The notes: generated by a model from the sequence alone, not told the origin. A stretch of 64,000 nucleotides of DNA from Lytechinus pictus (GCF_037042905.1 NC_087245.1:13766001-13830000), one strand, 5' to 3'. Positions 30,354 through 63,355 are shown, counted from the stretch's first letter. Program-made: numbers and translations.

Positions 30354-30384
<31 letters not shown>

Positions 30385-41193: not shown

Positions 41194-41271
41194 GGTATCA
41201 TGCATAAGACAAAGCCAATCTTCACAGCTCAGTTCCACCCGGAGCATAAAGGAGGACCAACAGATACAGAG
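41194..41271 (+). CDS. CPS1: CPS coding exon 9 (HPE motif)
   Basis: [26 protein letters not shown]. Confidence 0.95.
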
Positions 41272-41644
41272 GTACGTATCCACCAATAGCATATATCATA
41301 CAAGATTCAGTAATGTAACTACATGGGATGGATACCATGTACAAAATTTTGAAATCCTCTGTAAATATTAATAATATCTTTTGATGGGCACCCTTGGGCC
41401 ATTAGGTGTATATGTGTGTTTGTTGGGTTTTTACAAAGAGGTATGTATCAGATGTGATCATCTATGTCTGGTACTGACCTTTAATGTCACCATCCGAAAG
41501 ATATGAAAAAGCAATGCAGGCAAACTGCTCGGCGGGGTCTGAGTGCGGTGGCTAGGTTTTCAACGCTGGTCTTTCATGTGTATGGTGATTGTTTTGTAAA
41601 ATGTATGTTTGAAGTGTAGGAAGAAATTATATACTATGTTTCTT

Positions 41645-41807
41645 CGCTCTAAATTCCACTAACAAATCGAATGACCAACTTCAACCCTGGGTTTAACACT
41701 ATACCCTACCCTAAACCTAACATACAGCCCGATTGCAAACCTGAACATACCCCTTCATCTTGGACGAAATTAAGCCTGGAGCAATCGTCGCAGGAGCAAA
41801 TGTTACC
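41645..41807 (-). mobile_element. Partial copy of the small element that hosts the hAT insertion at 54.5-56.8 kb
   Basis: Reverse complement matches 54496-54550 and 56677-56750. Confidence 0.7.
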
Positions 41808-41861
41808 TATTATTTACTTATATTTTGGATGTATTGTTTGTATTGTATTACTAAAACATTC

Positions 41862-42089
41862 GGACCGTATTTTCAAAAGAGGTTTCAATTGTACCATGAT
41901 ACAACACATTGGACTAAGCAGATTTATTTCATTAACGCGCTTCATTTTAAGAGCTCTTTGCCGAAAGCGCACATTTAATTGGATTTAACTTTGTGTACGC
42001 TAAGAAATAAGCGTAAGTATGTGAAAAATCTGCATAGACCATGGTTTTGTACCATGGTACAATTGAAACCTCTTTTGAGAAAATGGGCC
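41862..42089. mobile_element. MITE with ~40-bp TIRs
   Basis: GGACCGTATTTTCAAAAGAGGTTTCAATTGTACCATG / CATGGTACAATTGAAACCTCTTTTGAGAAATGGGCC. Confidence 0.8.
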
Positions 42090-42240
42090 TGGAAGTTTGC
42101 TAAAGACCAGGAGATGATACACATGCTTACGATTCGAAACGTCTCCAAAGACTGACTCTTCTTTACACCTTGAGACATTCAAGACTGGTTTTTTTTTTTC
42201 CATGAATCTCATTTTTGTTTCCACCTTAATCTCTTCACAG

Positions 42241-42438
42241 TTTCTTTTTGATAATTTCATGGACATGGTCAAAAGTGGCAAGACCATGAAAGACCTTGAA
42301 TCCAACTTCAAAACATCGGGAAAGAGAGCAGAGAAGATTGAAGTCTCCAAGGTTCTGGTTCTAGGATCTGGAGGATTGTCCATTGGTCAAGCGGGAGAGT
42401 TTGATTATTCGGGCTCTCAGGCCATCAAGGCACTTAAG
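42241..42438 (+). CDS. CPS1: CPS coding exon 10
   Basis: [11 protein letters not shown]...[30 protein letters not shown]. Confidence 0.95.
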
Positions 42439-42808
42439 GTCAGTAAAGAGACTTCTTTAGCAACAAAGCCTCGGAAAATTTAACATACAGAGTCTATGGG
42501 AAATTGGTTTTCAAAATCATACATGTTCCCAAGTTCACTTCCTTTCCATCTATCCATTGATATTTATGTAGTTTTCCTTGATGTTTCTCTTCCCTACTTC
42601 TCTATGTCCAAGGCCTATCAAAACAAACCATTCTTTTATCTGTCAACTAAAGGGGATCAAGTCGATTTGTAGTTAACAAGGGGGCGATGGAAAGTGGTCT
42701 GGGTGTGCATTACCCCAAGTTAGTGAGACACAGTATGGCAAATGCCTTATTAATTTTTTTTTTTCAGAGCAAGAAATCAAGGTAAATTGTCATATTTGTT
42801 TTTTGTAG

Positions 42809-43045
42809 GAAGAGAATGTTAAGACTATCTTGATGAATCCAAACATAGCCTCGGTTCAGACCAATGAGTATGGTGAGAAGCAGGCCGACAGTGTCTACTT
42901 CGTACCCATCACACCAGAATTTGTCACCGATGTCATCAAGCGGGAGAAACCTGATGGGATCCTGCTTTCCATGGGAGGCCAGACTGCTCTCAACTGTGGG
43001 GTGGAGCTGTATAAAAGAGGGATCCTGCAGGAGCATGGAGTACAG
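42809..43045 (+). CDS. CPS1: CPS coding exon 11
   Basis: [19 protein letters not shown]...[24 protein letters not shown]. Confidence 0.95.
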
Positions 43046-43604
43046 GTGAGATAGGGCTCCATATAAGAGCGAGGGAAGTAAATGTGGAAACAGATTCAGG
43101 TGTAAATGTTGGTTCCTGCCTTTAATTTGAGGTAGAACATCTCAACTGTGGGCGGGAGCTCTATAAACAGTGATCCGAAAGGAACATGGAGTAAAGGGGA
43201 GATGTAATCCATGCTAACTGGGAGAAAAGAAGATAGTGGGATGAAATTCAGGTGGGAGGGTTGGATCCACCTTTTTACTGGAGGCCACATTACCCTGTGC
43301 TTTATAGCTCTATAACACAGGGATCCTTTTGTGATCTTGCAGGAGCATGGAGTACAGGTGGAGTTTGGGATCCATGTTTCAATATGAGACAAAGGAATGA
43401 TTTATCTGTATTTTCCCCCTTGTTTGGATTAAGGTTTTCTATTGGAAAATACATTAAATTGCTCTCATCAGTCAGGCTAGGTACAGAGATCCTTCAGCTG
43501 ACTACATTCTTTCCCAGCGTATAAAGGACCTTTTCTTGCCTCACCTAACAGTCTAAATGCACAGATATCAAATTATGCTTTGTATTTAACTTCATTAATG
43601 GCAG

Positions 43605-43715
43605 GTGTTAGGTACTCCCATTGAATCTATCATGGCGACCGAGGATAGACAGACATTCAATGATAAACTCATGGAGATTAATGAAAAGATTGCTCCCAGT
43701 GTGGCCGTAGAAACC
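43605..43715 (+). CDS. CPS1: CPS coding exon 12
   Basis: [37 protein letters not shown]. Confidence 0.95.
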
Positions 43716-44216
43716 GTAAGTACACTTAATGTTTCTACATGAAACATTATTCTTGTAATTTCTCTGGATTGTAATAAAAAAATAGTATGATAAGTAATTA
43801 TTATGCAACATTTTATTGAAAATGTTAATGTCAATTTGTACCATTCAGCATGTCCCTTTCTTTTTATTGTTGTAAGCCAAGTCAACACAGCTTCATACAG
43901 TTGCTAGGTGAACATTTCTGTTTCATCTCCATTAAAAAGAACATTACTGCATCGTATCATGTTACTTCTACAAGGTTTTTAAATGTTTGCAGATGTTCAT
44001 TTGTTGATGTTGATTTTTTTGTATAATTATAAAGGCTTTGAATATATTCATTTAAGGCAGCGCATATTTGTATTTACTTGATTTATATTTTGTTGAAACT
44101 GAAATAAATGAAAATGAAATGAAAGTATGAAATGAAATATTTCTCACTCTATCATTCAGTTATGTTTTCCAAGCTTTTGAGACCAAATATATGATTTCTA
44201 CTCACCTTCACCATAG

Positions 44217-44345
44217 GTATCTGATGCTCTTGATGCTGCTAGGAAGATTGGTTATCCAGTAATGGTGAGGGCAGCTTATGCCCTTGGAGGCCTGGGGTCA
44301 GGGGTCGCAGAGAATGAAGAAGCTTTGAGAGCTATAGCAACAAGG
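44217..44345 (+). CDS. CPS1: CPS coding exon 13
   Basis: [29 protein letters not shown]...ATR. Confidence 0.95.
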
Positions 44346-44826
44346 GTAAGTCTCCTATGGTTTCATCTCCTTTCTGTATTCCTTGCTCTTGTTATCCTGT
44401 GTATATTGATGTATTTTATCATGCCTGTGGATACTGTACATGTAGGTGGTTGCCAGAGGTTTTCTGTTTGGGGTCGTCCATCCAAATGTTCCGTTTTTGT
44501 TATCATGTTATGAAATGTTTTAAATAGAATACAAAATGAAATGACTGGATTCTATTTACAGTTGTCTTATCTTCAAGGGAAATCCAAGTTTGGTAATAAA
44601 ATGGTTCATGTGAAAGGAAAAAAAATTATAATTATTTGTCCAATTGTATTTAAATTGTCATCTATCTACTTCTCCTAATTTTTTCCTTTTGAAACATTTT
44701 TTTATTTATTTTGGGTTGGATTTCCCTTTAAGGTTCTTTGTCCTATTTGTCCTACCAGCTCATTACCTCGTTCTGTATCGACTAGAAATAGATTAATTAC
44801 ATAGATTGCATTATTTACTTTATCAG

Positions 44827-44971
44827 GGTTTAGCTTTGTCTAATCAACTGTTGATAGAGCAGTCTCTACTAGGATGGAAGGAGGTTGAGTATGAGGTGGT
44901 CCGGGATGCATCAAATAATTGTGTCACGGTATGCAACATGGAGAACTTTGACCCTCTAGGAGTCCATACAG
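44827..44971 (+). CDS. CPS1: CPS coding exon 14
   Basis: [27 protein letters not shown]...[13 protein letters not shown](G). Confidence 0.95.
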
Positions 44972-45090
44972 GTGAGTGGCAAGATAAATCAAGACCAAGA
45001 ATTCTTGTGAAATAGAGACTGGTCATCAACAATTTCTGAAGGAATCTTCATTTTTACAGAGAGTAAATCAGTTGTTTGATTCATTACTAT

Positions 45091-46870
45091 TGTCGCAGTA
45101 CAGGACCAGAGTACAACAATGAGGACCAGAAATACGTGATGAGTGCAGTTCTGTTATTTATTTCATTGCCGTATATTCTCGGCTGTAGTTGTACCTATCT
45201 CGCAGTATTTACAAAGCGACAAGAGGAACAAATAAAAAACCCTGAAAAATACAATCAAGAGAAAAGGTGTCATAAGATTTTGGCTCATAAAAATATGACA
45301 GAATTAACTTTCATAGGTTACTTGAAGGCAAATATTAACATGCAGTTACATGTTTTATAAACTCAGTAACGATGATTACAACATGGTATATAAGTTGCAT
45401 ATCAAATTATCAATGCATGAAGTTATCCTTTCAACTGTATACCAATCTATGCTGTTCTATTGATTACTTAATAAACCTTGAGTTACATCTCGACTTCATT
45501 TGTGTTTACACGAGAGCTTGTTTACATTTTGTCTTATTACCAAATTTATGAACATCATCTGAACTACCAAATCCATGCATGCCTAACATCACGATTTCAA
45601 GATCCATTTATAATTCAATAAGAGGAAAGAAATCATTGTGCTTCAAATAAAGTCAAATGACTCAAACACTCAACTGTATAGCATAACCTAAATTAGAGCA
45701 TATAACATTTCTTGTATTTCAAGTGTGACAAAGAGAAATAAATTCATATATCCATTCTACTGAAACGTACCCAAGGGCTCGAAGACAACACACCCACTGA
45801 GCAACCGTCTAAGAGGTACCAATCTCACTGCAGAGTCACTGTCCTTCAATAAAACATGTCAAAATAAGCAAATGACTACATAGAAATATGAACTCTTTCT
45901 TTCACTTAATTGACATTACATACCTACTCAAGCTTATGAACCCGAAGTATATAGTCTCCAAAAACCTTGTAACAACTTTGCCTAAACAAGATGTATTTCT
46001 CAATAAAAGTTTTCCTTCTCACCACAGCAATATCTAACTCACGGGCGCCGCCATCTTTATTCTATTGTTTACATCTGTAGCGCCATCAACGCTCATGTGC
46101 CTACGGCAAGTCTCATCTGAGATTAAACCCATACCTATATTGTACCTGATAAATCTCTGCATTTACTCATCTTCTGTAACATAAATAAATATAACTATTT
46201 CTGTGATTCTTTCTATCATTGGTTACTCACTAAAATCTACTTAAAATCTCAAATCTCTCTTTACAAAGTACCAAGAATATTTTCCAATAAATCGTAATAA
46301 AACCTTGTGGTATCAACGGGATTTCTGACACTCAAAAGCATTTCCCAATTCTTCAATGCAATATGAAGAAATTGTATCTACTCTAACAGTAAGGCATGTT
46401 ATGCAACTAATCTTCCATAATTCTTTTGGATCCTTCACATTTCCAGATATTAACACCAAAATGTTTGCATAATTTGTAGAGTAACACTATAAAATATTTA
46501 AGTTCACTTACTCACTAATACTGCTTTGAATTAAGACACTCAAACTTCGCAAATGAGTCGCAACCTTGGACATTGCACCGTGCTACGTCTGTTAACGACC
46601 TTGGCTCGAACTCGTGTGGCTCTGTCTACGCCCAATGCCACAGCACATGCATCAGACGCATTCCACAAGGGCAGTAACTTAATTTACATACACAATTTAA
46701 TTTGCATGCATACAAACAAAAATCTCTTTCAGACTAACTAATTTGCATGTGCGGTAACCCAAAATGTCAAAGGGGATAATTAGCATGCTCATTTAGTCAA
46801 ATACATGCGCACTGAGCAAATACATGTACAAACAAATTCAAAGAGCTACAAAATAGTCAATTTTCCTACA
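45091..46870. mobile_element. Probable solo LTR (1.78 kb, Gypsy-like 4-bp TSD)
   Basis: CTAT|TGT ... ACA|CTAT; non-coding, compositionally distinct from the flanking intron, contains ATTTGCAT and GCCGCCATCTT motifs. Confidence 0.6.
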
Positions 46871-47126
46871 CTATGTTTTTACAAATAAATGGCACTTCGC
46901 TAGTCATATTATTTCTACAGTTTGTTATTTTTTGGGAAAAGTAACATCATGAATGTGGCTTTATCCAACTCTTGAAAATGATCAATATGTAAAGAGAAAA
47001 ATGGCTTTTGACAATTTATTGTAGTAATATAAATAGAAGAGAATTCATGTTTACAATCTATTAAATGATATCTTTTATCAGTAAGCAAGTCTAAGATGCA
47101 TTAGCATAATACCGTCAACAGACATT

Positions 47127-47196
47127 GCAGTGATGAATAATTATCTGTCAATCCACAGAAGTCATTTGTGTTGATACATCCGTCCTTATTCTGAGC
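47127..47196 (+). ncRNA. Intronic C/D-box snoRNA, copy 1 (18S rRNA 2'-O-methylation guide, SNORD110-like)
   Basis: Box C gTGATGA at 47130-47136; guide ATCTGTCAATCC at 47143-47154, complementary to conserved 18S GGAUUGACAGAU; D' CAGA; C'-like TGTTGA; box D CTGA at 47191-47194. Paralogue at 57.7 kb. Confidence 0.85.
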
Positions 47197-47851
47197 TTTG
47201 TGTGATAAATTATGCATATTTAGCTATTGGGCTCTCAGCGGGTTTTGTAAAAGTTTGGTCTAATGCCCTTTCATATTATTGTCTAATCCAACAAACACCT
47301 TGGCTGCACACATGTTCTTATTGCTGTCTGGTCTAATTGTCACCTTGGCTATCTTTAAATGATCTAATTTGCCACTTAATTTGCTTTATAGTTCACCTTA
47401 TAATGTGAATGACTTCATTAATGTTGCTCAACTAATTGAGTATTTGACGAAATGGGTTTTCCTCCCTGGAAATCAGATCAAATGGTGAGTGACATCACTG
47501 GCAATAAGAAGGTGGGTTAAGACCAAACAGAAATTTGCCAACATGGGATTAGACGAATTGGCAATTCACATTCTGTCTAGTCTGAATTATTATGTAGAAC
47601 CATATTTCTTTAATTTATTTTAAAACAAATGACATAATATGCATAACAAATTATGTATTCATAAACAAAGTGTATCATGATCAAATTAACTATCTAACAG
47701 AAGTATTTAACACAAGGTACACTACAGAATGTTATATAGTTGATATATAGAGAGAACCATAGGAGTTGTTGGTCATTCAGCTCAACATAGAATAAACCTT
47801 GTATGACCTTTGAATTTGGAATTGAATTGAATTGCTTGATTGCATCCACAG

Positions 47852-48062
47852 GTGATTCCATCGTGGTTGCCCCGAGCCAGACCCTCTCCAACCAAGAGTA
47901 CCACATGCTGCGAGAGACGGCCATCAAGACTGTCCGCCATCTTGGTATCATAGGAGAGTGTAACATCCAGTATGCTCTTCACCCATCATCCCTGGAGTAT
48001 TGTATCATTGAGGTGAATGCCAGGCTCTCTAGGAGCTCTGCTCTAGCCTCTAAGGCCACAGG
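47852..48062 (+). CDS. CPS1: CPS coding exon 15
   Basis: [11 protein letters not shown]...[19 protein letters not shown]. Confidence 0.96.
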
Positions 48063-49177
48063 GTAAGGACTTTCTCAAGACAGAGGGCGCTTGGTATGCA
48101 TTGTCTTTGACTACCATTTATTCTCCCTATTATCAATCTCTACACTATCAGATTTTCATATAGGAAACAGAGAGGTAATTGAGACCATGAGAAGATTTAC
48201 GTTAGGAGTTTATTGAGAGCCTCTTGGGATGTTGAGTCGTTTAAGTTGTTATAGAAACGTCTTTGACTGCCACTAGACATTGAACTATGTGCCAAAGATA
48301 CAATATCCTTTGATTGTAATTTCAAGCTTTTGTATCTTTCACTCAGTTTCTCATTGCCATTTATGTTTTCTCTAAGACCTGTCTTATCAGTTATCTTGTC
48401 TTATGATTTCTCACTCACTATTGTGCTATAACTAACTTTCTTCTTGTTTTCCTCCTATTTAAATCTCAATCTCTGCACTATCAGATAATTAAGAGCATTT
48501 ATGAACATTTTTATAAAATGTGGTTTTATTTGTTAGTGGTTGTTTCTTTTAACCACCACTAGAAATTGGTGATATAACACTGATGGCGTTCAGTCATCCT
48601 CATCAATTTATTAGGCTGTAACACGACCCAGACATGCCAACCATTCCCTTTTTAGAGCATTTGTTCTTCTTATTTGCTACAAATATGCCAATACTTTTTT
48701 GTATGATTTGTTACTTTTTTAAAAATTTCCGATCATGTAGTATGTATTATACACATCGTGCAACACTAGCGCTAGTTGGACAGTCCCAGGCCGGTAAAAA
48801 TCACTGTCGGGCCTGTAACTTGTTGCATGAATAGAACAAGTTTAAAATGGTGAACTATCAAGCTTTCAAGTAGAGTCATTTCACATGTGTTTTCATCGAT
48901 CTCACTACAACAGGCTGGTGATTTTTATGTTGAGAAAATTTGTAAAAAGTACTCTTTTTTGTCAAAAAATACCTTTTTTTCCTTCTAAGAATACTTTGTT
49001 TTGTTGTAGAAGGTTGGCAGGTCTGATGTCACGTTAACTCATGATGTTCTTACTCCCATTTGTTTGTTTTTTAGTATGTAGTAAGGATAGTACTTCACCT
49101 AATGGCTGCAGACACAGCAGCACAACCACACCTAGATTCATAGTATGCCTCATTTTTCATTCAATCCTGCTTATTAG

Positions 49178-49376
49178 CTACCCGCTGGCCTTCATTGCCG
49201 CCAAGCTTGCCCTGGGTATTGCCTTACCGGACATCAAGAACAGTACCACCCAGGCCACCACAGCATGCTTTGAACCTAGTCTGGATTACATCGTTACCAA
49301 AATCCCTCGCTGGGACCTGGACCGTTTCCATGGTACCTCCAAGCAGATCGGCAGTGCCATGAAGAGCGTCGGAGAG
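49178..49376 (+). CDS. CPS1: CPS coding exon 16
   Basis: [13 protein letters not shown]...[21 protein letters not shown]...MKSVGE. Confidence 0.96.
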
Positions 49377-50240
49377 GTTAGTCAGTGATGTGTATATGAA
49401 TCATCTTGTTTGTAAACAAATGGCAATTTCTTTATTATAGAGGTTCAAATGTTTTTACGTAAAGTATTTTGTTAGTGATTTGGAATGAATACTGAATTTT
49501 TAATGAATGAAATGTATTTAAAGTGCCAAATTGCTTTGGAATGAATTCCAAATTCATTGCAAATTGAGGTTGATAACAATATTGATATGAGATCAACAAT
49601 GAATTTTGCTTTCATCCTTCCATGGAATCTCATATATGCAATTTTCACTTCAGTGTCCATATAAAAACTTCAAACAGTTTCCAGGAAATACTTAAATGAT
49701 TTTATTGTAAATTTTCATAAAATGTATTTTGTTTAGTTTGATCTACTTCAGTATAATAATATTATCATCTATGCACAACAGTAGAACTCGACTTTGGTAC
49801 AATCCAGGGAAAAATTTGAATTCTTAAGTTTGTTAACAGTTTTGGTCATTGGGGAAGGACTTTTATTTTAAACTTCTAATCCTATGTAACAACCTGCTCC
49901 ACAAAGTCATTTTGTGTATATAGTGATATTAGAATGATTAGCAAATCATGATTTGATACCAGAAATAAATACATATGTATGGTTGAAGTTTTGTCATCAT
50001 TTCTTTGTGAATTTGATTTGTTTTTTCATGACCATAATTTTTTTTGTACCAAATTTTTTTTAGGGGGGGTGCTGAACACCTGTAAACCCCCCATGCGTAC
50101 GCTTCTGTTTCTGATACATTAATAACCTTGAATCCTCCTAGTTGTACATGTATTATTTTACATCTTATTCCCCCCACCATATCATATACCGATTATCAGT
50201 GATCCCCCAAAGACCACCCCTATTTGTTTACCTGCCATAG

Positions 50241-50411
50241 GTGATGGCTATTGGACGTACCTTTGAGGAGAGTCTTCAGAAGGCTCTTCGTATGATTCAT
50301 CCATCCATCGATGGTTTCACCCCAGACCTTCCCAGTGGCAAGACGTTACCTGGTAACCTAGAGGAGGAGCTTAGAGTACCATCCAGCAACCGTATCTATG
50401 CTATTGCCAAG
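50241..50411 (+). CDS. CPS1: CPS coding exon 17
   Basis: [18 protein letters not shown]...RIYAIAK. Confidence 0.95.
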
Positions 50412-51069
50412 GTAAATAACATTTTTTTAAATATATAAGTTGTATATTCCAATAGTGAACAGTTGGAAAGAAAGCTGGAAAGTGGTTTATGTTAGAGCAA
50501 TCCATTGCTTCACATAGACCTTCTTAAGTAATTTAATAATATAAATCAATTATATTTATAGTGGATCAGTGGATATGTTTATTACTGTCTTGTTAATGAA
50601 CAAATTGTGTATATGTGCTGTGATTTTGAGAGATGAATTAATATGTTCTTATGCCCTGTCTTTATCTCATGTAGATAATTATAGTGAACAGTGAATCTAC
50701 TGCTATTTATTGATTTTCTATGTAATTATGATTTTTTTTATTTATTGAATAAGATAAGTGCAGTATATTGTATTGTGGCAATAGCTCTGAGTTGTCTCCA
50801 TTTATAAGACGCGATTGATTTTATTTCTTAATGCAAACAATAGAGCACCAAAGCAATGATGTGAGCCTTTTGTTAGAGGATAGCAGTGGTTGCAAACAGA
50901 AATCCTTTCATGAGCAATGCGTCAGTGAGTGAAAACTGAGCCCTTTAAAAATATTTAGAATAAGTCACTATAAGGGTAAATGGCTACAATGTCTTATTTT
51001 GGCTGTCTATTGGTAATTAATATGAGTAAACTTACCAATCATTTTGAGTGAACCGTTTCATTTGTCCAG

Positions 51070-51188
51070 GCATTCCAAGATGGTTTCTCAGTGGATAAGA
51101 TCCATGATTTGACAGCCATTGATAAGTGGTTCTTACACAAGCTAGACAAAATCAAAAGCATTGATGATGAGCTGGGAGAATTCAATGC
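51070..51188 (+). CDS. CPS1: CPS coding exon 18
   Basis: AFQDGFSVDKIHDLTAIDKWFLHKLDKIKSIDDELGEFNA. Confidence 0.93.
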
Positions 51189-51636
51189 GTAAGTAATCCA
51201 TAAACTCTCTTTTATTGTGACTTGTCATTTTCAGGATTTGGTAGCTGTGTTGAGTCCTTTTTTAATTTATTATATTTTTTAAAACTGTTCAGACATGATA
51301 AGACAAATTGCTCTTTTGATATTTTGTTCACCCTGTTGTATACAGCATATTGCACAGGATATTCCTTATTTATGTTTTCAACTTGTATAATGTTATAAAT
51401 ATTTAATATGTTCCTTGTACTGTGATATTTACTTGTAGTTTTCACTTGTTACTTTTTTCAGTTATTCCAAAACACAGCTCATTGGAACCTGTACTAGGAT
51501 GGCCCTGAACTGTATTTGTCTGACTTCTTTGTTGAAAAACCAACAAACAAATAATTGGGCTTAAATTTTTTTTTTTTAGTAATCATGATCTTAGTAAATA
51601 GTGATTATCTTTATATTTGCATCTGAATTCTTTCAG

Positions 51637-51778
51637 TGAAACCGTACCTCGCACCACACTACTGGAAGCTAAAGGTGCTGGTTTCTCTGACAAACAAATC
51701 GGCAAGAAGATAGGGCTCTGTGAGACTGATTCTAGGAAACTCAGACTTTATCATGACATTGCTCCATGGGTCAAACAG
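51637..51778 (+). CDS. CPS1: CPS coding exon 19
   Basis: ETVPRTTLLEAKGAGFSDKQIG...IAPWVKQ. Confidence 0.93.
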
Positions 51779-52252
51779 GTATGTGCCTGATTTTCAATCA
51801 ATAAAGTTCTGCTTGGTTTACACCCACTTTGCCAGTTTGGTCTCAGCCCGTATGGTCTGATATGTTTTGTCTACAACCAGCTCATCTAATTTTTACTCTG
51901 CTGGTATAGAAATGATTTCATCAAAGTTCAAGTTCAATAGGTTTGATTTATGTATAAATATTCACTTGATCAAACACCGGTCTGAAGTCTATGTAATTGG
52001 ACTTGGTACAGTAATAAATGGTCATTAGACAGATTGGGACATATTAAGTGGCGAATTATTTGATAATTTTCATTGAATGATAATTTGTCGAAAATCTAAT
52101 TTTTCTTTGTTCCTTGTCACTATATATTGGAAGCAAAGTGTGGAATCCTACCACAGCAAAATGGAAGAAAAGAAATATCAATGCGAATCTAAACCAATTA
52201 GCAAGTAGACCTAATTAATTATAGGTCAAGTGATTTACAGTTTAACTCTGAA

Positions 52253-52402
52253 AGGTTTCCATGATGAAGAGTGAATCAATGCAGAGACTCCATGGTGCAC
52301 CATGTATTCTTTTGTGTGCTCTGTGTGATCCTGGAGAGGACCACCCAATCTTAATATCATTTTGACTAGTATGTTCTTGCCATCTTTAGAACTGAGAAGC
52401 CT
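52253..52402 (+). ncRNA. Candidate long intronic C/D-box RNA
   Basis: Perfect box C ATGATGA (52261) and box D CTGA (52392), closed by a 7-bp terminal stem AGGTTTC/GAAGCCT; internal CTCCA...TGGAG hairpin. No target identified. Confidence 0.5.
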
Positions 52403-52631
52403 CTGCATTGGCAAATGCAATTGGTTTAATCCTTTCCAACCTCTCCTCTTGTAGAGAGACTTTGTTATTTTTAATTTATATCGCAAAGAATCATTAAGCT
52501 TTCTAAATATGTATCACTTTGAAATTGTCTTCTTCACAGTATTCACTATTGTAAGGTTGACAGTCCTGAATTCGAGATGGGAATTATATGTATTTTATCT
52601 ATTTTTTATTATTTTGTTTATCTTTGTTTAG

Positions 52632-52697
52632 ATTGACACTCTGGCAGCCGAGTATCCAGCTAAGACAAACTACCTGTATTGCACTTATAATGGCATG
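52632..52697 (+). CDS. CPS1: CPS coding exon 20
   Basis: IDTLAAEYPAKTNYLYCTYNGM. Confidence 0.95.
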
Positions 52698-53077
52698 GTG
52701 AGATTGGATGAAATATTCATGTTTGTATAATTTATTGCAATCTAGCAGATTCCCCTTTTAGCCAATGATAATTCAAATGTAGTTTCAAATGTTTGATTTA
52801 TGGAGTTTCTAGTCGTTTTTGAAAAATATGAACCAGGAATGACCTGAAGCAAGTTAGTCATAATTCATCATTACCTCTGATTAATGCATGGATGTTAAAT
52901 TGTTAGTTCATTTAATATTTCTATTTTGACATGACTAGGACTGATGAAATACATTAAACTAAAGCATAGACCTGATTTTTTATGACTTTTCAAGCATGAC
53001 TATTCTTTCTTAAATAATAATCAAGTAATAATGACAATATGACACTAACTATTCTATGCTTGTATCCACTGTGCAGA

Positions 53078-53206
53078 GTGCTTAGGGCATGTCATGTCAG
53101 AGAACTAGCTTTAGCTTGGCTGCGATCCTACCTCTTAAGCATTTCAAGAAATCAGTATTTCTGCCAGGTACCGTTCTAATACACCTGGGTCAAGTGCAGC
53201 ACAATA
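53078..53206 (+). ncRNA. Candidate intronic H/ACA snoRNA
   Basis: Hairpin 1 (TGCTTAGGG/CTCTTAAGCA), H box AAATCA at 53149-53154, hairpin 2 (GTATTT/AAGTGC and CCAGGT/ACCTGG), ACA at 53201-53203, about 90 nt before the acceptor. Confidence 0.5.
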
Positions 53207-53296
53207 TTGAGAAACTTCTTGCTGAAAGAAAGTATCCAATGTCCTTTTGATTGAAATCATTTAAAGTGGAGTTTTGGGGTTGTTGTTTTTTCACAG

Positions 53297-53360
53297 GAAC
53301 ATGACCTTTCATTTGATGACAGAGGTACAATGGTTTTGGGATGTGGTCCTTATCACATAG
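53297..53360 (+). CDS. CPS1: CPS coding exon 21
   Basis: [21 protein letters not shown](G). Confidence 0.95.
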
Positions 53361-53868
53361 GTAAGACGCAATTGAAGAAGCATTCAAATGAATGAGAACA
53401 AAATATTTTCAGTTGGATATTACGAGGTCTGTGAAACATGCTAAAGTTGAACCTATTTTCCTAATATTTATAGTTGTGAATCTCAAAAGAACTTGCTTAG
53501 TTGTAATTATGGTGAAAAGTAGATTTCATATCTTTAATCATTAAGAATTATGGATGGTTTTATTAACATGTCATTCAAGATATATAATTGACTTTTATTA
53601 AATGTGAAGTCCAGTTTCGGTAAGATCTCAAATCCTATATATATATATATGCAATATCTAGTTTAAGTTAGCAAGTAGCATGTGAAGGTTTTCCACGTCA
53701 AGTTGAGGCAAATGAGAGGGGATACTGCAAATTTCTACAATTTATTCGTGGACAACAAATTAAAATCTTGATTATGCATATAAAACCAAAGAGAGATCTT
53801 CTCCCCTCATAACACACACAAATCACTATGATTTCATACACATACAGCCCAGGGGTCAATTTCCTTAG

Positions 53869-54457
53869 AGGGATGGTCCGGGCTGAAAATATTTGTATCT
53901 AAATAAATAGAGAAAAACTTCACAGAGCAAAATGCTGAAAATTTCATCAAAATAGGATAACAAATAACAAAGTTATTGAATTTTAAATTTTATTAATATT
54001 TTGTGAAAACAGTTATATGCATGTAGTCATGAATATTCATTAGGTGGGCTGATGATGTCACATCCCCACTTTCCTTTTTCTTATGTTATTACATTAAATC
54101 ATAAATGTTTCATTTTTTCATACATGCGTAAATGACGTGTCTCCATTATGATGAAATAAGTTGCGGCAGTAAATAACTAATGTACTCACTCAGTTGTCAA
54201 TCCAATTGTTATAGTTCTTGGTAGAAAAATTTTGAATAAACCTAATTTCATATAATAAAATACAAAAGAAAAAGTGGGGATATGAAATCATCAGCACACC
54301 TAATGAATATTCATAAAGACATGCCTAGACCTGTTTCACCGGAATAATGAAAATATTCAAATTTAATAACTTGATTTTGATCAAATTTTCAGCATTTTGC
54401 TTTGTGAATTTTACTCTATTTATTGAGATATAAATATCTCCAACCTGGACCATCCCT
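53869..54457. mobile_element. MITE with long imperfect TIRs, related to the 22613 element
   Basis: ttag|AGGGATGGTCCGGGCTG ... CAACCTGGACCATCCCT|TTAA. Confidence 0.8.
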
Positions 54458-54561
54458 TTAACCGGGGTCAATACGGCTATTAGAAATTGGTGATATGACA
54501 TTTGCTCCTGCGACAATTGCTCCGGGCTTAATTTCATCTAAGATGTAGGGTTAGGGTTAGG

Positions 54562-56668
54562 TAATGTTGTAAATCGGATCAAAAATCAGATCGAAAATCG
54601 GATCGGCAGTTAAGCTTCTAAAATCGAAATCGAATCGAAAATCGAATCGGCGATGTTTAAAAACAAAGGAATACATCAACATTTTGTTCGCGGTCGCGCG
54701 CATCTTCCTGACAAAGTCACAAAGACGAATGTTTAGGAATGGAAGTACAGGTACCGGTAGTCGACATGCGCGTTCGTTTGGAACATGCTTTTAAAGGGTT
54801 TTGAGGTTTAACTGCTTAACAATAAAATGAGTGATTTTTATTAGAAAGATAAACGAATGACGCATCTTCCGAGCAGTCGCAAAGGAAAATAATTCTCGTA
54901 GATCACAGGTCAATGAACGATCGGCGGGACATCTTTTATAAGTATTTTTATGTGAAGCTGAGCTCAGCTAAGTTCGCTCATTATAATATGTGATTACAGC
55001 CACGCCCAATAACCATTCCAAAGTACACCCATTTTGTTATAATAGCTTACTTGGTACATCATTTCTCCGAATCAGTTCTGGGAAAAGTTAAGTCACGCCT
55101 CAGTATCGATCTTTTTGTATACCCACCCACTCAACAATATCAGTGAATTACGCAATGCGCGCAAGCATTCACACAATACAAGATAGTTTTGTGGCATAGC
55201 CGAGAACTGGAACCGCCCAGACTCAACGGGCTAGCGCAAAATTCTTTACACTACCTTTTGGCATGTGCACGTGGTGGGTTTGATTGACACTGCTAACAGT
55301 GCTATTCTTTGAGTTGGCTCACTGGCTGGATTAATGACAATATATCACTGCAAGTATGGCTTACATGATACATACAACACGCAACACATCCATACACACT
55401 GCTCTCAAACTCCCTTGCTATTATTCGTACCTAGGCCGTGTGTGCACTTATGGGCGGGATTTAAGCAGGGCATTGACTAGCATATACAACACATCCATGC
55501 ACCCAGCATTCATATACATTTCTCAAACTCCCTTGCTATTCGTCCATTGTGTGAACTCATGGGCGGGATTATGACAAAAATTAGCGCAAGCACTAGCATA
55601 CGTAACACACACAATACATTCCTGCACCCACGCGGTCACACATAGCTCTCAAACTCCCTTGTCATTCGTCCATTGTATTCACTCATGGGCGGGATTTATC
55701 AGCGTAAGCACTAAGCATACATAATGCGTACAACACATTCATGCAGTCACACACAGCTCTCAAACTCCCTTGCTATTGGTCCATTGTATTCACTTATGGG
55801 CGGGATTTATCAGCATAAGCACTAGCATACATAATGCATACAACACATTCATGCACCCATGCAGTCACATACAGCTCTCAAACTCCATTGCTATTGGCCA
55901 TTGTGTGCACTCATGGGCGGGATTATGACAAAAATTAGCGCAAGCACTAGCATACGTAATACACACAATACATTCCTACACCCACGCGGTCACACATAGC
56001 TCTCAAACTCCCTTGTCATTCGTCCATTGTATTCACTCATGGGCGGGATTTATCAGCGTAAGCACTAGCATACATAATGCGTACAACACATTCATGCAGT
56101 CACACACAGCTTTCAAACTCCCTTGCTATTGGTCCATTGTATTCACTTATGGGCGGGATTTATCAGCATAAGCACTAGCATACATAATGCATACAACACA
56201 TTCATGCACCCATGCAGTCACATACAGCTCTCAAACTCCATTGCTATTGGCCATTGTGTGCACTCATGGGCGGGATAAATGACAAACACAGTACAAGTAC
56301 ATGTTCATTGTTTGTATATTATACAATACATTCATTCCAAGTTGAAGTTACACTCCCGCCATACCAGTCAGCGCAGCTACCGGTAGGTCATCATAAGTAG
56401 GTCAACCTTTTATGAGTCATTTCTGACATTCTAGGAATCTCGATTGTTCGAACTATTCGATTGTTAAAAAGCTCTAAATAGCTAGCACCTCTGCAAGAAC
56501 AATCTTGAAATATGTTCTGACCGCACTGTAACTAGATCTACAGGTATGCCGATTTTTTATATCCGATTTTTTCCTTCAAGGGGCATGATCGAAGATCGGC
56601 AAGTGATCGCCGATTGTTGTGAAATCGAATGGAATCGGTTGCCGATTGCAAAATCGGTTACAAGCTTA
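54562..56668. mobile_element. hAT-like non-autonomous element with an 8-bp TSD, carrying a satellite array
   Basis: GGGTTAGG|TAATGTTGTAAATCG ... CGGTTACAAGCTTA|GGGTTAGG; clustered AATCG/CGATT motifs near both ends. Confidence 0.8.
55365..56290. repeat. ~110-126-bp tandem repeat, 8 units, with a ~354-bp three-monomer higher-order period
   Basis: GGGCGGGAT anchors at ~55452, 55561, 55687, 55798, 55915, 56041, 56151 and 56268. Confidence 0.92.
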
Positions 56669-57090
56669 GGGTTAGGTATAGGGTAGGGTATAGTGTTAAA
56701 TCCAGGGTTGAAGTTGGTCATTCCATTAGTGAGTGGAATTTAGAGCGGAGCAATTGTCGCTGGAGCAAATGACATGAAACCTACAAATTGCTTTGTTTTC
56801 AGTATTGGATTAAATCTTATTTCTAGTCATGAGTAAAACTTCAGTCCAAATTGAATTCACTTCAATTGAATTTAAGTGCTTTAATTAGTATATGCAATGT
56901 ATGAGGTATTAAATCTCCCACATGAAACTATGTAATAGGGTAAAAATGTTAATAACTGTTGCCAATTTGAGGAGTATCAGCAGATTAATTTAGATCTCGA
57001 GAAATATGTATGCCTCTATGATGTAATTGAACTCACTGGTATGACTTGTTACTTATTCAAAGCTTTCCTCTTGAATACCTATTATAACAG

Positions 57091-57272
57091 GAAGCAGTGT
57101 AGAGTTTGACTGGTGTGCAGTGTCCAGCATCCGGTCACTGCGTGAGTTGGGCCGTAAGACAGTAGTGGTCAACCATAACCCCGAGACGGTCAGTACAGAT
57201 TTTGATGAGTGCGACCGTCTCTACTTTGACGAGCTGTCCAGGGAAAGGGTGCTGGACATTTACCAGCATGAG
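57091..57272 (+). CDS. CPS1: CPS coding exon 22
   Basis: [20 protein letters not shown]...[17 protein letters not shown]...YQHE. Confidence 0.96.
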
Positions 57273-57660
57273 GTATGATAACATTGTATGATTCTCAGTT
57301 TAGATTTAATCAATCTTTTTCATGATTGTTGTAGTTTCAATTATGATTTGTATATTTTCAGTGCACACATAGTATTTTCTATGGTAGTCTAGAGAGCATG
57401 ACCTAATTTTCAACTTCCTTTCCTCAGTATGATTTATGTATGCCTGTAAGGGATGTAATTGATAAATATTTGATAAGTATCATGTGATCAATTTATCCCT
57501 ATAAAATTTTGTCCTATTCTTAATGAATTGTATCAATTATTTCAAATATAGGTACATCAACACTTCTATAATTCTATATTGTTTTTGTTATGATAAATTT
57601 GTAGCAATGGACTTATCTACCATGGCAATAAACATAATGTATATATAATGACCAGACACT

Positions 57661-57730
57661 GCGATGATGAATATTAATCTGTCAATCCACAGAAGTCATT
57701 TGTGTTGATACATCCATCCTTATTCTGACC
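57661..57730 (+). ncRNA. Intronic C/D-box snoRNA, copy 2 (18S rRNA guide, SNORD110-like)
   Basis: Box C aTGATGA at 57664-57670; guide AATCTGTCAATCC at 57676-57688; D' CAGA; box D CTGA at 57725-57728; flanking stem CAGACA/TGTCTG. Confidence 0.85.
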
Positions 57731-57899
57731 TTTGTCTGATCAGTCATGCATCATGCTATTTCTTCCCTTTAAAAGGAAGTGCTATGGTACACCTCACTGA
57801 TTCTTTAGCATTGTGGATAAATATGCAGTACTTAATAACGTAACTATTGAATTGCTTTTACATAGTTATTCATCTGGTTATTGTATTTTGGTTCTCTAG

Positions 57900-58024
57900 G
57901 GTTGTACAGGAATGATCATCTCAGTGGGTGGACAGATACCCAACAACCTGGCCCTACCCCTGTATAATGATGGTGTCAATATCCTAGGAACCAGCCCTCT
58001 ACAGATCCATGCTGTGGAAGAGAG
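57900..58024 (+). CDS. CPS1: CPS coding exon 23
   Basis: [22 protein letters not shown]...[13 protein letters not shown]. Confidence 0.95.
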
Positions 58025-58247
58025 GTAAGTGATCATCTGGGGAAATGCAGCATTTAATTCTTTATCAAACAAATAATGTATCAGGGGGCATTGGGGAGGG
58101 AAGATGCAAGGTAGATAAATCAGGGAATAATTTTTATTGTCAAATTTGATTAGTTGCTTTGTGGGATAGAGTAAAGATTTGGAATTAGATTTTTTTTTTA
58201 TAAATCTTGTGTTAAAATCTTCCATACATAAAAAACAAACATTTTAT

Positions 58248-59982
58248 TAGGAGTGGGCTATAAATGGGTGATATTTAGTTTTACTGTGGCAACAGTTTTT
58301 TTGTATTCCTTTTACCTTATCTCAACATGAAATAACAATGTTTTTTGTCTCGGGTCCGAGAAAAAAGTGTGCCGGGCCAAAATCCAAAATGGCCGCCAAA
58401 ACCCCCCAAAATCACAGTTTTGGCCACAACTTCTTTATTTGGTGGTCTTTTTCTCTGGTTTTGGTGTCTATTCATCTGTTTTTGGGGGCTAGGCAATTTG
58501 TTTTTCCTAAAATTAGTACTTATAAACCATTATTTGTAGAGTTAAAAGGTGACTTTACTTAAATTTACAACTTTTTAGACCCTTTTTCAGCCAAAAAATT
58601 AGGTTTCATTGTCTCATGGTTCTTGGATATTAGATGACACCAGTTGAGAAGTAGTAAGCAGCTTCTTATAGCTATATTGCTTTTATTCTTCTAAATGGTG
58701 TTTTACAGATATTTGCGAAATATATCTTATCAAATAAAAAGATGTCATCTATCCATACGGGCTATATACAGTGTAGTACAATGTATTGTACATACTACAC
58801 TGCATATATCCATGCATTGAGCCATTGACCACCATGACATACATGTATAACAAGTCCTGTATATAAACTATAGTGTCATAGAAGTGAGCTCCTGAGGATT
58901 AGAATTAGATTGTCACTTGTGAATTTGATTGCTTGTTAGCTGATGTACATACTGTACATGATGTAACCTGATGATAAACATAAATTGCACATAAACATCA
59001 TGTACATGTACATCACATTTCTAGCCATATCTTCTTCATTTGGAGGCTTGTTTTTACCTGGTTGTGGTGTCTAACCCTATGTTTATGGGGTCAGGTACAA
59101 TGGTAACGCTGATCAACAGCCAATCAGAATCAAGTATTCCATGCAAGTTACCATTGAATGGCAAAGTTACCTTAATGGTAACAGAATAGCCACAGTGTAA
59201 ATGCCAGAATGTGTGGTTGACTATAATCCATCGTTAATGATATTTCCTCTCTCCGCCCCCTGCATGAGCATATATGACAAAACATGTCTTCAATTTCTGG
59301 GGCAAAACATACAGCATCTTCAATTTCTGAGGCATTTAATTCAAGAGCTCATTTCTATGACACTATAGTTTATCCTACAGACGATGGTCAATGCAAGGAC
59401 ATACATGTATGCAGTGCAGTATGTACAATACATTGTACATTAACTATATATACATAGTAGCCCCTATGGATAAATGACGTTTTTTCATTTAATAAGATAT
59501 ATTTCGCAAATATCCGTAAAACACAAAGTAGAGGAATAAGAGCAATATAGCTATATGAAACTACTTGCTATTGTTGAATTCGTATTGTCCAATACCCAAG
59601 AACCACAAGACGATGAAACCCAATTTTTGGCTGAAAAAGGGTCTAAAAATCTGTATATTTAGGTAAAATCACCTTTTAACTCGACAAATAATGTTTTTTA
59701 GTACAAATTTTAGGTAAAACAAATTGCCTACCCCTAAAAACATATGAATAGACACCAAAACCAGAGAAAAAGACCAAAAAATAAAGAAGTTGTGGCCAAA
59801 ACTGTGATTTTGGGGGGTTTGGGCGGCCATTTTGGATTTTAGCCCGGCACACTTTTTTCTCGGACCCGAGACAAAAAATATTGTCATTTCATGTTGAGAT
59901 ACATTACAAGGAATAAATAAAAACTGTTGCCATATTAAAATTACAAAAAAAGTATTTTTGACCCATGTATAGCCCACTCCTA
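58248..59982. mobile_element. Fold-back element with ~650-bp inverted arms and a 7-bp flanking duplication
   Basis: ATTTTAT|TAGGAGTGGGCTATA ... TATAGCCCACTCCTA|ATTTTAT; arms ~58248-58900 and ~59337-59982. Confidence 0.85.
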
Positions 59983-60295
59983 ATTTTATGTTGCAATCAT
60001 TTTTGAAATGCAAAGGAAATATTTCATAAAACTCTACAAAATTTCCACATTTTTAATATAACATTTAACTCTATAGTTAAACAGATCAAGATAAACATGA
60101 CATGGATAGGAATCATATCCATCATTCTGTAAATTTGTTCTGCAGTTCTCACATTTTGTTGATAAAGAAATGATGGGTAACATCAGCTCAAGAGAAGTAT
60201 TTTTAAAGATTTTCTTTATGGCTTTGTCAGAAAGTTTTGAATCTCACTTGTGCCGAAGATATTGTCATATTAGTTTATTTGTAATCATGTTATAG

Positions 60296-60365
60296 GTCGA
60301 TATTCTCTGCCATTCTTGATGATCTGAATGTTGATCAAGCCCCTTGGAGAGCCCTTTCATCATTG
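60296..60365 (+). CDS. CPS1: CPS coding exon 24
   Basis: SIFSAILDDLNVDQAPWRALSSL. Confidence 0.93.
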
Positions 60366-60455
60366 GTAAGCTTGCCTCATTGACTTATTCTGAGAGACTT
60401 GACGGATACATCAGTTTCCCATTCTTGATATCTTAAATGGAGGTGTAACTGGCCA

Positions 60456-60617
60456 GGGGGCTGTTTCATAAAAATGTTTGCAAGTTGAGAGCGACTTTTA
60501 GAACGACTGGTGATCCTTTCTTACGCGCTGAACTATCGCCAATTAATATACCATTAACCACAAGAAAGGACCACCAGTTGGTCGCTCTTAACTTTCGAAC
60601 AGCTTTATGAAACACCC
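60456..60617. mobile_element. Short MITE
   Basis: gggggctgtttcataaaa..gagagcgac / gtcgctctt..ctttatgaaacaccc. Confidence 0.6.
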
Positions 60618-60839
60618 ACCAAATGTACAAATATTTAGTTTTACTGATGATTTATTATCTATAAAATACTTACTGCATTGTATATCAGATATGTTAACTG
60701 TCAAAGCCCTCATAAAAATGATTATTATGAATTCAAATTTTTAAATTGAAATTCCTGAATGAGAAAAGATATCTGAAATGAAATGCAAAAGTAAGAAATT
60801 GATTATTTTCTCTTCATTTTGTATTTCTTTTATTTACAG

Positions 60840-60907
60840 GATGAAGCCTTGGAGTTTGCCGCAAGTGTTGGATACCCCTGTCTTCTCAGACCTTCATTTG
60901 TTCTAAG
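60840..60907 (+). CDS. CPS1: CPS coding exon 25
   Basis: [23 protein letters not shown]. Confidence 0.95.
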
Positions 60908-60988
60908 GTAAATAGAAGAAAACCAAATTGCTTTGTAAAGCAACAACATGACTGATGTTGTTTGAAGGTTTGCATGGTGGCATGTACA

Positions 60989-61176
60989 ATCGCTGATGTG
61001 GTTTATGGTACACCATGTGGAGTGTTATAGAAACAGTGGATAGAAGAAGAGAAGGACTACTTTCAAGAAAGAATACTCTACTCTCAAATCTCCACTTTCT
61101 CGCCTATCCATTTCTTCTCTTCTATCCAATGTTTCTATAACACTCCACATGGTGTACCGTAAACCACATCAGCGAT
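60989..61176. mobile_element. Near-perfect hairpin MITE (~60-bp arms)
   Basis: ATCGCTGATGTGGTTTATGGTACACCATGTGGAGTGTTATAGAAAC / GTTTCTATAACACTCCACATGGTGTACCGTAAACCACATCAGCGAT. Confidence 0.8.
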
Positions 61177-61303
61177 AACAACATGTCTCTCGTATTAAGG
61201 AACCCAGTCACAAAGAGTTCAGTGTGACTGAAAGTTGTGCTTCAGTGCCGATGCACACATCTTCTACCATCAAGCTCATTAATGAATATAGATCAGCGGG
61301 TGT

Positions 61304-61702
61304 CAGGGTGTCCAGCCCATCAGGGAAATCAGGGAAAATTATTTTACTTTTTTCAAGTTAGGGAAAAATCAGGGAATTTGATTTTAAAAATACCTCAAAT
61401 CAGGGAAAAATGCCTGAAATAAGGGAAAAATCAGGGAATTTTGATCAGCCCAAAAGTCAAAGCATGGTAGTCAGTCAGGCTCTGTTATATTTTGTTGCAT
61501 ATCAGAACAGCATCCATTGAATGACTGGTTATGGTGGTACTAATTAGTTTTACATTATTGTTTTTATACTAAAAATGTAATTCACTGCAACAACTTGCGA
61601 AAACATGCGAAACTGGGAATGGGTTTAAATAATCATGTTTGTTTTAAACCTCATCAGGGAAAAATCAGGGAATTTTGTTTTCTTGAAAAGCTGGGAACCT
61701 TG
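61304..61702. mobile_element. hAT-like MITE with a 6-bp TSD
   Basis: GGGTGT|CAGGGTGTCCAGC ... GCTGGGAACCTTG|GGGTGT; many TCAGGGAA subterminal motifs. Confidence 0.75.
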
Positions 61703-62100
61703 GGGTGTTCTTGAGGCATGATCTTAGGATTGCAGTGATGTGTTATATCCCACTCACAACTAGGAATTCAAGGGTGATTTCAATTTTCAATGATTACAAT
61801 GTAACTATCACTGAACTCTGAAACCTTCAAACATTTACATTATGTCATAAAATGACATAGTAATCATATTTTGTTTAAAAAAATTTCCAGGATATTTTCA
61901 ATTAATGAATAGATATGTACTGGTGTACAGCATGCATATAATATCTTACTCATGATTTCTGCAAAAATAATTAAATGAAAAAGTTAAGCAAAATTTCTTG
62001 GTAGAAACGTCCTCTCACTTATTGACCGAGTTCTGTGTAAATTTTTTGACCTCTTCTGCGTAAAGCAGTACATATAACTCAAGATCTCTTTTCTTTTCAG

Positions 62101-62254
62101 TGGGTCAGCAATGAATGTTGCCTTTGGACCAGAGGAGCTCAAACGCTTCTTAGAGGAAGCTACAAAGGTATCCCAAGAACACCCTGTTGTCATCACTAAG
62201 TTCATAGAGGGCGCTAGAGAGGTAGAAATGGATGCTGTGGCCAGGAACGGAAAG
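62101..62254 (+). CDS. CPS1: CPS coding exon 26
   Basis: GSAMNVAFG...[26 protein letters not shown]. Confidence 0.95.
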
Positions 62255-62542
62255 GTGAGTGATAAACATTTATCAAAATCTCTTAAATATTTGTGCCCAT
62301 TCCAGTTTTAGTTTGCCAGTATATGGCTTGTCTTTTCAAGTCTCAGTGCAATTTTATAATGAACTGATGTATCATATTTAAACTTCAGAAACATTATTCT
62401 TTTGAATTGTCAAATCCACTGCATTATTTTTTGGTCAAATTTTTTCATGTGCACATCACTAATATAACCTTGCATTGTGTGAGGTATGAGACAATGAGAT
62501 TGCAGATTTGGTAATGTTTAAAATTCTGTGTACTTTTTACAG

Positions 62543-62650
62543 GTTGTTGCTCATGCAGTGACAGAGCATGTGGAGAACGCAGGGGTACATTCGGGAGATG
62601 CTACTCTCATCTTACCCCCTCACACACTAACGGATGAACAACAGAGGAAG
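62543..62650 (+). CDS. CPS1: CPS coding exon 27
   Basis: [36 protein letters not shown]. Confidence 0.95.
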
Positions 62651-62707
62651 GTGAATAGAATTTGAAATATGGTGATGAAAGCACTCTGGTTGAATGAATG
62701 AAAGTCG

Positions 62708-62766
62708 TGGTAATGATGATTAAGATAATTATGATGATGATGATGATGGCAATCATAATGATGATA

Positions 62767-62814
<48 letters not shown>

Positions 62815-63086
62815 GTAATGGTAATGATGATGATAATGATTGTAATGGTAGTTATGATGATAATGGTGGTAATGATGATGATAATAACGATGACAAAGTG
62901 ATGATGATGATGATGTTGATGATGGCAATCATAATTATGATGATGGTAATGGTAATGATGATGATAATAATTGTAATGGTAATCATGATAATGATGGTGA
63001 TGATGATGATGATTATAATGATGACAAAGTGATGATGATGATGATGGTGGTGGTGATGGTGATGATGATGAGGATGATGATGATGG
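62708..63086. repeat. (GAT/AAT/GGT)n trinucleotide microsatellite
   Basis: Direct inspection. Confidence 0.97.
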
Positions 63087-63265
63087 AAAAGACAACATTG
63101 GAGGTTTATAAAGAGGATGATGATGGTGATGTTTGAAATTTAAAAATTTACCATTGCATGCATGGTTGCCGTTCCTTTTTCACTCTCATGACATATTTCT
63201 TAAGGATTTTGTTTAAAAGGTTATGAAGAAATTGAATAGTATTATGTATACTTTACATTATTCAG

Positions 63266-63355
63266 GTGAGAGAAATGACGGCCAAGATTGCTCAGCGTTT
63301 CCAGATCTCTGGACCATTCAACATTCAGTTCTTAGCCAAGGACAATGAAGTCAAG
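63266..63355 (+). CDS. CPS1: CPS coding exon 28 (last in window)
   Basis: VREMTAKIAQRFQISGPFNIQFLAKDNEVK. Confidence 0.93.

Follow-up and report, generated by a model that had tools for sequence, protein, structure and literature searches.

In Lytechinus pictus, two introns of a gene for mitochondrial carbamoyl-phosphate synthetase (CPS) each carry a unit that is probably a real intronic box C/D snoRNA of the SNORD110/snoR14 guide type, with a function predicted from the sequence. The window analyzed is a stretch of 64,000 nucleotides (GCF_037042905.1 NC_087245.1:13766001-13830000), and positions are counted from its first letter. Both units possess the diagnostic boxes and complementarity to the organism's own 18S rRNA, lie on the sense strand of introns that are spliced (copy 1) or modelled as such (copy 2), and occur in low copy number. 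The reading that we favor, and hold to be reasonably probable, is that they are working snoRNAs, redundant for the 18S nucleotide U1239, with an auxiliary element on the side of box D. The CPS pre-mRNA would carry both units, exonucleases would release them from the introns with the aid of a short external stem, and the released RNAs would bind the core proteins, including fibrillarin, with the D' guide directing 2'-O-methylation of U1239. The pair probably arose when a single copy entered CPS and later spread from one intron to another, and both copies would persist as redundant dosage, with the D-side element most likely pairing with 18S 1231-1242 and helping to open that helix.

The units lie at 47130..47194 (copy 1) and 57664..57728 (copy 2) on the + strand and each measure 65 nt from box C (RUGAUGA) to box D (CUGA), within the 60-100 nt span of C/D snoRNAs. 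An earlier note on this DNA had placed two such units in two different introns, and both were located there with boxes C, D', C', and D. Copy 1 comprises box C GUGAUGA (47130..47136), the D' guide (47143..47154), box D' CAGA (47156..47159; a single change relative to CUGA), box C' GUGUUGA (47168..47174), a conserved D-side element (47175..47190), and box D CUGA (47191..47194). The corresponding parts of copy 2 are box C AUGAUGA (57664..57670), the D' guide (57674..57688), box D' CAGA (57690..57693), box C' GUGUUGA (57702..57708), the D-side element (57709..57724), and box D CUGA (57725..57728). Boxes D' and C' each depart from the consensus by 1 change, the same in both copies, and remain recognizable as internal boxes. 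Including the arms of the external stem, copy 1 extends over 47119..47204 (arms 47119-47124 and 47199-47204) and copy 2 over 57653..57738 (arms 57653-57658 and 57733-57738), both on the + strand. The stem of copy 2 is a perfect 6 bp helix recovered in the minimum free energy (MFE) and centroid structures (overall z ~0), whereas that of copy 1 has 5 of 6 bp, with a mismatch at 47202, and is absent from the MFE structure (z ~0).

From box C to box D, the copies are identical at 61 of 65 positions, distributed as 6/7 in box C, 4/6 in the spacer, 17/17 in the D' guide plus box D', 8/8 in the loop, 7/7 in box C', 15/16 in the D-side element, and 4/4 in box D; the D-side difference is a G/A exchange (positions 47182 and 57716). 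BLAST comparison of the 2 host introns yielded 1 significant match (99 nt, 88.9% identity, E 2e-33; runner-up E 0.22), and this being the only significant likeness of the introns bears out the intron-to-intron duplication proposed in the earlier note. The likeness begins at the CAGACA arm ~11 nt upstream of box C and fades ~23 nt beyond box D (10/12, then 8/11, then 13/37 identical positions), so that the claim of a boundary within ~10 nt of the boxes holds upstream and fails downstream. A dispersed repeat of high copy number, which the earlier note had listed for checking, was ruled out: whole-genome BLAST (811.7 Mb), a DNA search that skips common words, returned 2 matches, both of them the CPS copies, and the first pattern likewise gave 2 matches. 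No third copy was found within CPS or in the 20 kb following the window.

The host gene occupies 29104..64000 on the + strand, with 28 of its 34 coding exons inside the window and its last exon, which terminates in a stop codon, ~6.6 kb past the window end. In a tblastn search with a sea urchin CPS protein, the 34 coding exons on the + strand covered residues 1-1503 and were followed by the stop, which identifies the host as a stand-alone mitochondrial CPS and not CAD; one 73-aa exon is 99% identical to sea urchin mitochondrial carbamoyl-phosphate synthase. The glutaminase cysteine is retained in the motif FGICMGN, as in the fish proteins P0079, P0080, and P0010, the mammalian proteins P0120 and P0064 having FGISTGN, and the C-terminal domain is alignable with mammalian CPS1. 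The retained cysteine agrees with the family definition of CPS III, and the host fits this type, as had been claimed, with a predicted N-acetylglutamate-dependent, glutamine-using activity. Copy 1 resides in coding intron 14 (44972..47851, + strand, GT-AG, 2880 nt; exon count from this analysis) and copy 2 in coding intron 22 (57273..57899, + strand, GT-AG, 627 nt; modelled splice sites), each in the sense orientation. In all 4 sequencing runs that were aligned, reads and contigs had loose ends at 47848-47851 matching the upstream exon, which indicates that intron 14 is spliced as modelled. Intronic snoRNAs usually lie 70-90 nt from the 3' splice site. The 657 nt and 171 nt that separate box D of copy 1 and copy 2, respectively, from this site exceed that range, which is consistent with an external stem, and it is because of this distance that stem-aided release is proposed for both units.

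Target RNAs were sought in rDNA taken from the same genome (18S, 5.8S, and 28S). The D' guide of copy 1 forms 12 Watson-Crick pairs with 18S 1236-1247 and that of copy 2 forms 15 pairs (14 Watson-Crick and 1 G-U) with 18S 1236-1250, and the base at +5 is U1239 in both; a guide was defined as at least 10 pairs adjoining one of the D boxes with the +5 base included in the duplex, and both copies exceed this length. Of 20,000 shuffled guides, 9 reached 12 Watson-Crick pairs at some position of the 18S, 5.8S, or 28S. The prediction of a guide directed at the U in GGAUUG was therefore upheld, and the organism's own 18S contains the complement, paired from position 1236 onward. The guide is that expected for the equivalent of human 18S U1288 and lies in the same register as the consensus guide in the Rfam alignment, in agreement with the proposed SNORD110 type. 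According to the available text of the sources, SNORD110 guides human 18S Um1288 from an intron of NOP56 (PMC8677024, PMC9454646, bioRxiv 10.64898/2026.09.11.751006), and chicken GGgCD24, of the SNORD110 type, targets 18S U1246 from intron 6 of NOL5A (= NOP56) (PMC2653536). The CPS copies resemble SNORD110 (HBII-55, RF00610) in the D' guide and its +5 register, in the intronic position, and in a length of ~70 nt; they differ in the host, in the D' box CAGA, and in an unrelated 3' half. The copies with the exact guide that were recovered from this genome are located in CPS and SF3B3 introns instead of NOP56.

At the gathering cut-offs, Rfam returned no match for either copy, and both are one base off consensus in D' and C', which are points against working snoRNAs. 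Below the cut-offs, the Rfam check proposed in the earlier note did recover the expected guide type: the best match of copy 1 was SNORD110 (22.6 bits against a gathering score of 64, E 0.041), and the match of copy 2 with the lowest E was that of its 5' half to the clan mate snoR14 (21.7 bits against 40, E 0.088), both alignments running through the U1239 guide in the same register. The low score of copy 1 is explained by its 3' half being unrelated to SNORD110. Copy 2 shares with plant snoR14 (RF01280, clan CL00076, which also contains SNORD110) a guide with a CCAC end in the 5' half, whereas its 3' half is unmatched. Further matches, including DdR8, snoR160, and snoU30, were partial and far under the cut-off, and were taken as chance. 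The CPS copies are thus predicted to work like SNORD110 yet, scoring below the RF00610 gathering threshold, are not filed as members of that family; they represent 2 unannotated snoRNA genes that were missed because they fall below the Rfam cut-off.

To place the pair among other guides for U1239, we relied on searches of the genome and of metagenomes. With RF00610 as the query, 65 candidates were scored in the genome and 5 of them matched, 4 at 38.5-44 bits (compared with 22.6 for CPS copy 1) in a single 8-kb stretch and the fifth weakly and without the guide. The 4 SNORD110-like genes (L013-L016, within L019) carry the same U1239 guide and lie between exons on the strand of a gene of which one exon matches SF3B3 structures (E 2e-22). 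SF3B3 is described in the available text of PMC1636440 and PMC2653536 as a vertebrate host, that of SNORD111/111B. Like the CPS pair, the SF3B3 copies occupy several introns of one gene; unlike it, they lie nearer to the Rfam model, with the consensus D' CUGA and a box C ending in U. A wider guide pattern matched the genome 9 times, comprising the 2 CPS copies, the 4 SF3B3 copies, and 3 others, which were rejected for want of a D' box after the guide, so that 6 predicted guides for U1239 can be counted, 4 in SF3B3 and 2 in CPS. With 4 guides in SF3B3, methylation of U1239 need not follow CPS, and the CPS pair gives the impression of spares housed in an uncommon host gene, not of a link between metabolism and the ribosome. 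The arrangement adds a further case of host switching, the host being NOP56 in vertebrates and SF3B3 and CPS here. The guide is widespread: the metagenome scan with it detected at least 121 loci, of which at least 70 had the full layout of box C, guide, D', and box D; among the at least 121 loci listed, tblastn with CPS and SF3B3-region frames gave no match, and hosts could therefore not be compared there.

The 16-nt D-side element is conserved in the CPS pair, and the SF3B3 copies are without it. Its complementarity was scanned in 9,645 nt of this genome, comprising 18S, 5.8S, 28S, the two ITS, the 2.4 kb preceding 18S, and U1, U2, U4, U5, and U6. Ten sites had at least 7 contiguous pairs to both D-sides. 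The top candidate common to both copies is 18S 1231-1242 (11/12 paired, 2-3 of them G-U, +5 at A1235), which is directly upstream of, and overlaps, U1239, followed by U1 A36 (10/12 paired, 7 contiguous); U6 A70 has 7 contiguous pairs. At 28S A3040, a site rejected here, copy 1 alone had its top score and the duplex is broken in copy 2, and the 8-nt 28S match AUAAGGAU suggested in the earlier note is absent, the 28S of the species reading GGGAGAAGGAUUGG. The G/A variant base faces a U in all 3 candidate targets (in 18S, U1239 itself), as the claimed compatibility with U would have it, but this does not discriminate among 18S A1235, U1 A36, and U6 A70. Shuffled guides equalled the energy of the 18S site somewhere in rRNA or U6 in 191/300 and 171/300 cases for the 2 copies (U1 being outside this null), and within 15 nt of U1239 in 4/300 and 5/300, a nearness test that was post hoc. 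Overall, none of the D-side matches is better than those of shuffled guides.

Extra base-pairing beside a methylation site has precedents: in the portions of PMC3116282 available, snR75, snR76, and HBII-316 are described as using their second guide region for extra pairing, which overlaps by ≤5 bases (5 nt in the human case) that include the target, and such pairing as raising methylation up to five-fold and as rarely adjoining box D. Like these yeast and human elements, the CPS D-side is conserved and complementary to sequence beside and over the methylation site; in contrast to them, it overlaps the D' duplex by 7 nt and adjoins box D, an atypical arrangement that weighs against our reading, and its role is predicted from sequence. 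We consider it most likely that the element provides auxiliary extra base-pairing at 18S 1231-1242 and is not a second guide.

A true double guide, in which the D' side is redundant and the D side makes a second, CPS-dependent methylation, supplied by no other gene of this genome, at 18S A1235, U1 A36, or U6 A70, is rather unlikely, although it has the most in its favor among the alternatives. Besides the pairing at the 3 sites, the D-side is nearly unchanged between the paralogs and in a related organism (see below), it adjoins a perfect C/D motif, and its match is missing from 3 of the 4 SF3B3 copies, the fourth having a 12/12 match to 5.8S. Second guides are also common in the family, 14 of 47 distinct metagenome D-sides matching an rRNA site with at least 9 Watson-Crick pairs. 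However, the metagenomes contained no locus with the double-guide pattern, and none of the 47 D-sides resembled that of CPS. In the organism's own genome, the D-side pattern had 10 matches against 1 for a reversed control, but the 8 outside CPS are alike only in the searched ends and their number approximates the estimate from base composition. All 3 target matches lie within the shuffled-guide range (with U1 outside the null), and a G-U pair adjoins the target base in the 18S duplex. The base equivalent to 18S A1235 is not known to be methylated. In C/D scaRNAs, D' and C' are separated by a long G-U-rich stem that serves targeting to Cajal bodies, and in the CPS copies, with regard to a U1 target, the D'-C' loop was found to be just 8 nt, with no such stem. 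U6 Am70 is a known methylation site (PMC13109388, available text), but in mammals it is assigned to SNORD23 (PMC11863803, available text). The narrower version, in which a double guide specific to this lineage adds methylation through its D side at 18S A1235 or at U1 A36 in loop I, strikes us as quite unlikely; methylation at these bases, 4 bases from U1239 and in U1 loop I, respectively, is absent from the available portions of the literature reviewed. Were the double guide true, CPS would set a ribosomal or spliceosomal mark by tissue and stage through a guide exclusive to these genes, and a D-side guiding its own site would be a clean case of RNA modification from a metabolic gene alone.

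Copy 1 and its surroundings (46885-48084) were aligned with 4 sequencing runs: X4 and X5, which are contigs of guessed RNA type whose ends may reflect graph branching, and X7 and X8, which are raw reads sampled at ~6%, with a host depth of about 2-4. The X4 contig, from a related organism, spans 47143-47318 with 20 changes, of which 14 could be placed, all at or beyond 47202, and 6 near the ends could not; it carries no change in the 22 nt of the assessable core (47173-47194), compared with 14 in the 94 assessable nt of the flank (p 0.043 by a one-sided Fisher test). Within the D-side, no change is listed in X4 and 1 in one X5 contig. X5 provided 2 distinct contigs, both starting 6 letters before 47126, near box C, and one of them fits up to 47217, the point at which the likeness to copy 2 stops, so that both paralogs are probably present in X5. 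The base at 47202 is C in both X5 contigs and in the X4 contig, which restores the stem pair. Across all 4 runs, the 240 nt upstream of copy 1 (46885-47124) were uncovered, and coverage extends 3' from the snoRNA. At copy 1, X8 had a depth of 0.7-2, corresponding to only 1-2 fragments in the orientation of the exon reads, and X7 had none of its 12 mapped reads there. Expression of mature snoRNAs from the CPS introns is suggested by these data, and in the ~6% samples of X7 and X8 the reads did not pile up with defined ends at copy 1, which counts against our reading.

The alternative that the units are decaying or silent appears very unlikely; on this view an old snoRNA was transposed, its two copies stayed similar through gene conversion or because the duplication is recent, and they yield little or no mature RNA. 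It would account for the off-consensus D' and C' boxes, the broken stem pair of copy 1, the distant splice sites, the nearly nil snoRNA reads in X7 and X8 at the host depth given above, and the coverage of U1239 by 4 other copies. It sits poorly with the core that is kept against a drifting flank between organisms, with the end of the copy likeness at the stem arms, and with intron coverage that starts at the snoRNA, with none upstream.

Working snoRNAs redundant for U1239 remain our preferred reading, and the earlier note's proposal that the CPS location ties rRNA modification to CPS transcription, making U1239 methylation respond to nitrogen metabolism, is highly improbable: 2 copies are kept in CPS introns, also in a related organism, and where methylation is partial its level could depend on the amount of guide, for which Um1288, reported in the available text of a preprint to rise when SNORD110 is drug-bound (bioRxiv 10.64898/2026.09.11.751006), offers an example, but 4 of the 6 guides, all scoring higher, lie in the splicing-factor gene SF3B3, host choice mainly requires broad expression while location drifts (PMC3511168, available text), and snoRNA levels are often uncoupled from hosts other than ribosomal-protein genes (PMC8176728, available text). 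A literature search whose sources mostly excluded subscription papers listed nothing relevant on snoRNAs within CPS introns or on echinoderm guides. The implied rarity of metabolic hosts is contradicted by chicken C/D snoRNAs in the energy-metabolism genes ATP5B and COX7C, and also in RABGGTB (PMC2653536, available text), and movement of snoRNAs from intron to intron and from gene to gene has already been published (PMC3511168, PMC6984369, and PMC2653536, available text). The 6 predicted guides for one base, divided between 2 hosts with probably different expression, provide a natural test.

SNORD110-like C/D snoRNAs also occupy four separate introns of the SF3B3 gene in the same genome (C2, about 63.63–63.64 Mb), one in each intron. 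On the SF3B3-bearing stretch L019, they lie on the minus strand at 1909–1978, 4676–4745, 6202–6273, and 9575–9645, and none of the four reaches the Rfam cut-off. The region between C′ and box D (the D-side) of the copy at 9575–9645 pairs with the 5.8S rRNA of this genome at 12 of 12 positions, 10 of them Watson–Crick, with U81 as the +5 base, and, judged from complementarity, this D-side is a possible second guide directed at 5.8S U81.

A 548-nt metagenome locus (L124) carries an AT-rich homolog that shares the D′ box CAGA and the C′ region UGUGUUGA with the two snoRNAs found in the introns of the mitochondrial carbamoyl-phosphate synthetase (CPS) gene, whereas its D-side differs. Across eukaryotes, the U1288-type D′ guide of the metagenome loci L022–L142 is accompanied by many differing D-side guides, with predicted targets including 18S positions 1160, 1388, 969, and 154 (numbered on the 18S of this sea urchin genome). 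Such varied partners present a picture of guide shuffling.

Within the CPS gene, at 38468–39163, coding exon 6 ends at an apparent GC donor (about 38499), after which come about eight degenerate 82–84-nt repeats of this exon–intron junction, most of which contain a GT donor-like sequence; the repeats are predicted to form a stack of 5′ splice sites that serve as decoys or alternatives. About 73 nt upstream of the CPS start codon, an acceptor-like sequence (about 29030–29104) points to a possible non-coding exon farther upstream. Also upstream of CPS, a 610-aa open frame, counted from stop to stop (15783–17615, plus strand), encodes tandem C2H2 zinc-finger motifs. Coding intron 21 of CPS harbors a tandem array with a unit of about 110–126 nt (55506–56280), and four MITE-like elements with long terminal inverted repeats (18571–19166, 33847–34463, 53865–54461, and 58238–59992) are sited in intergenic DNA and introns of the window.
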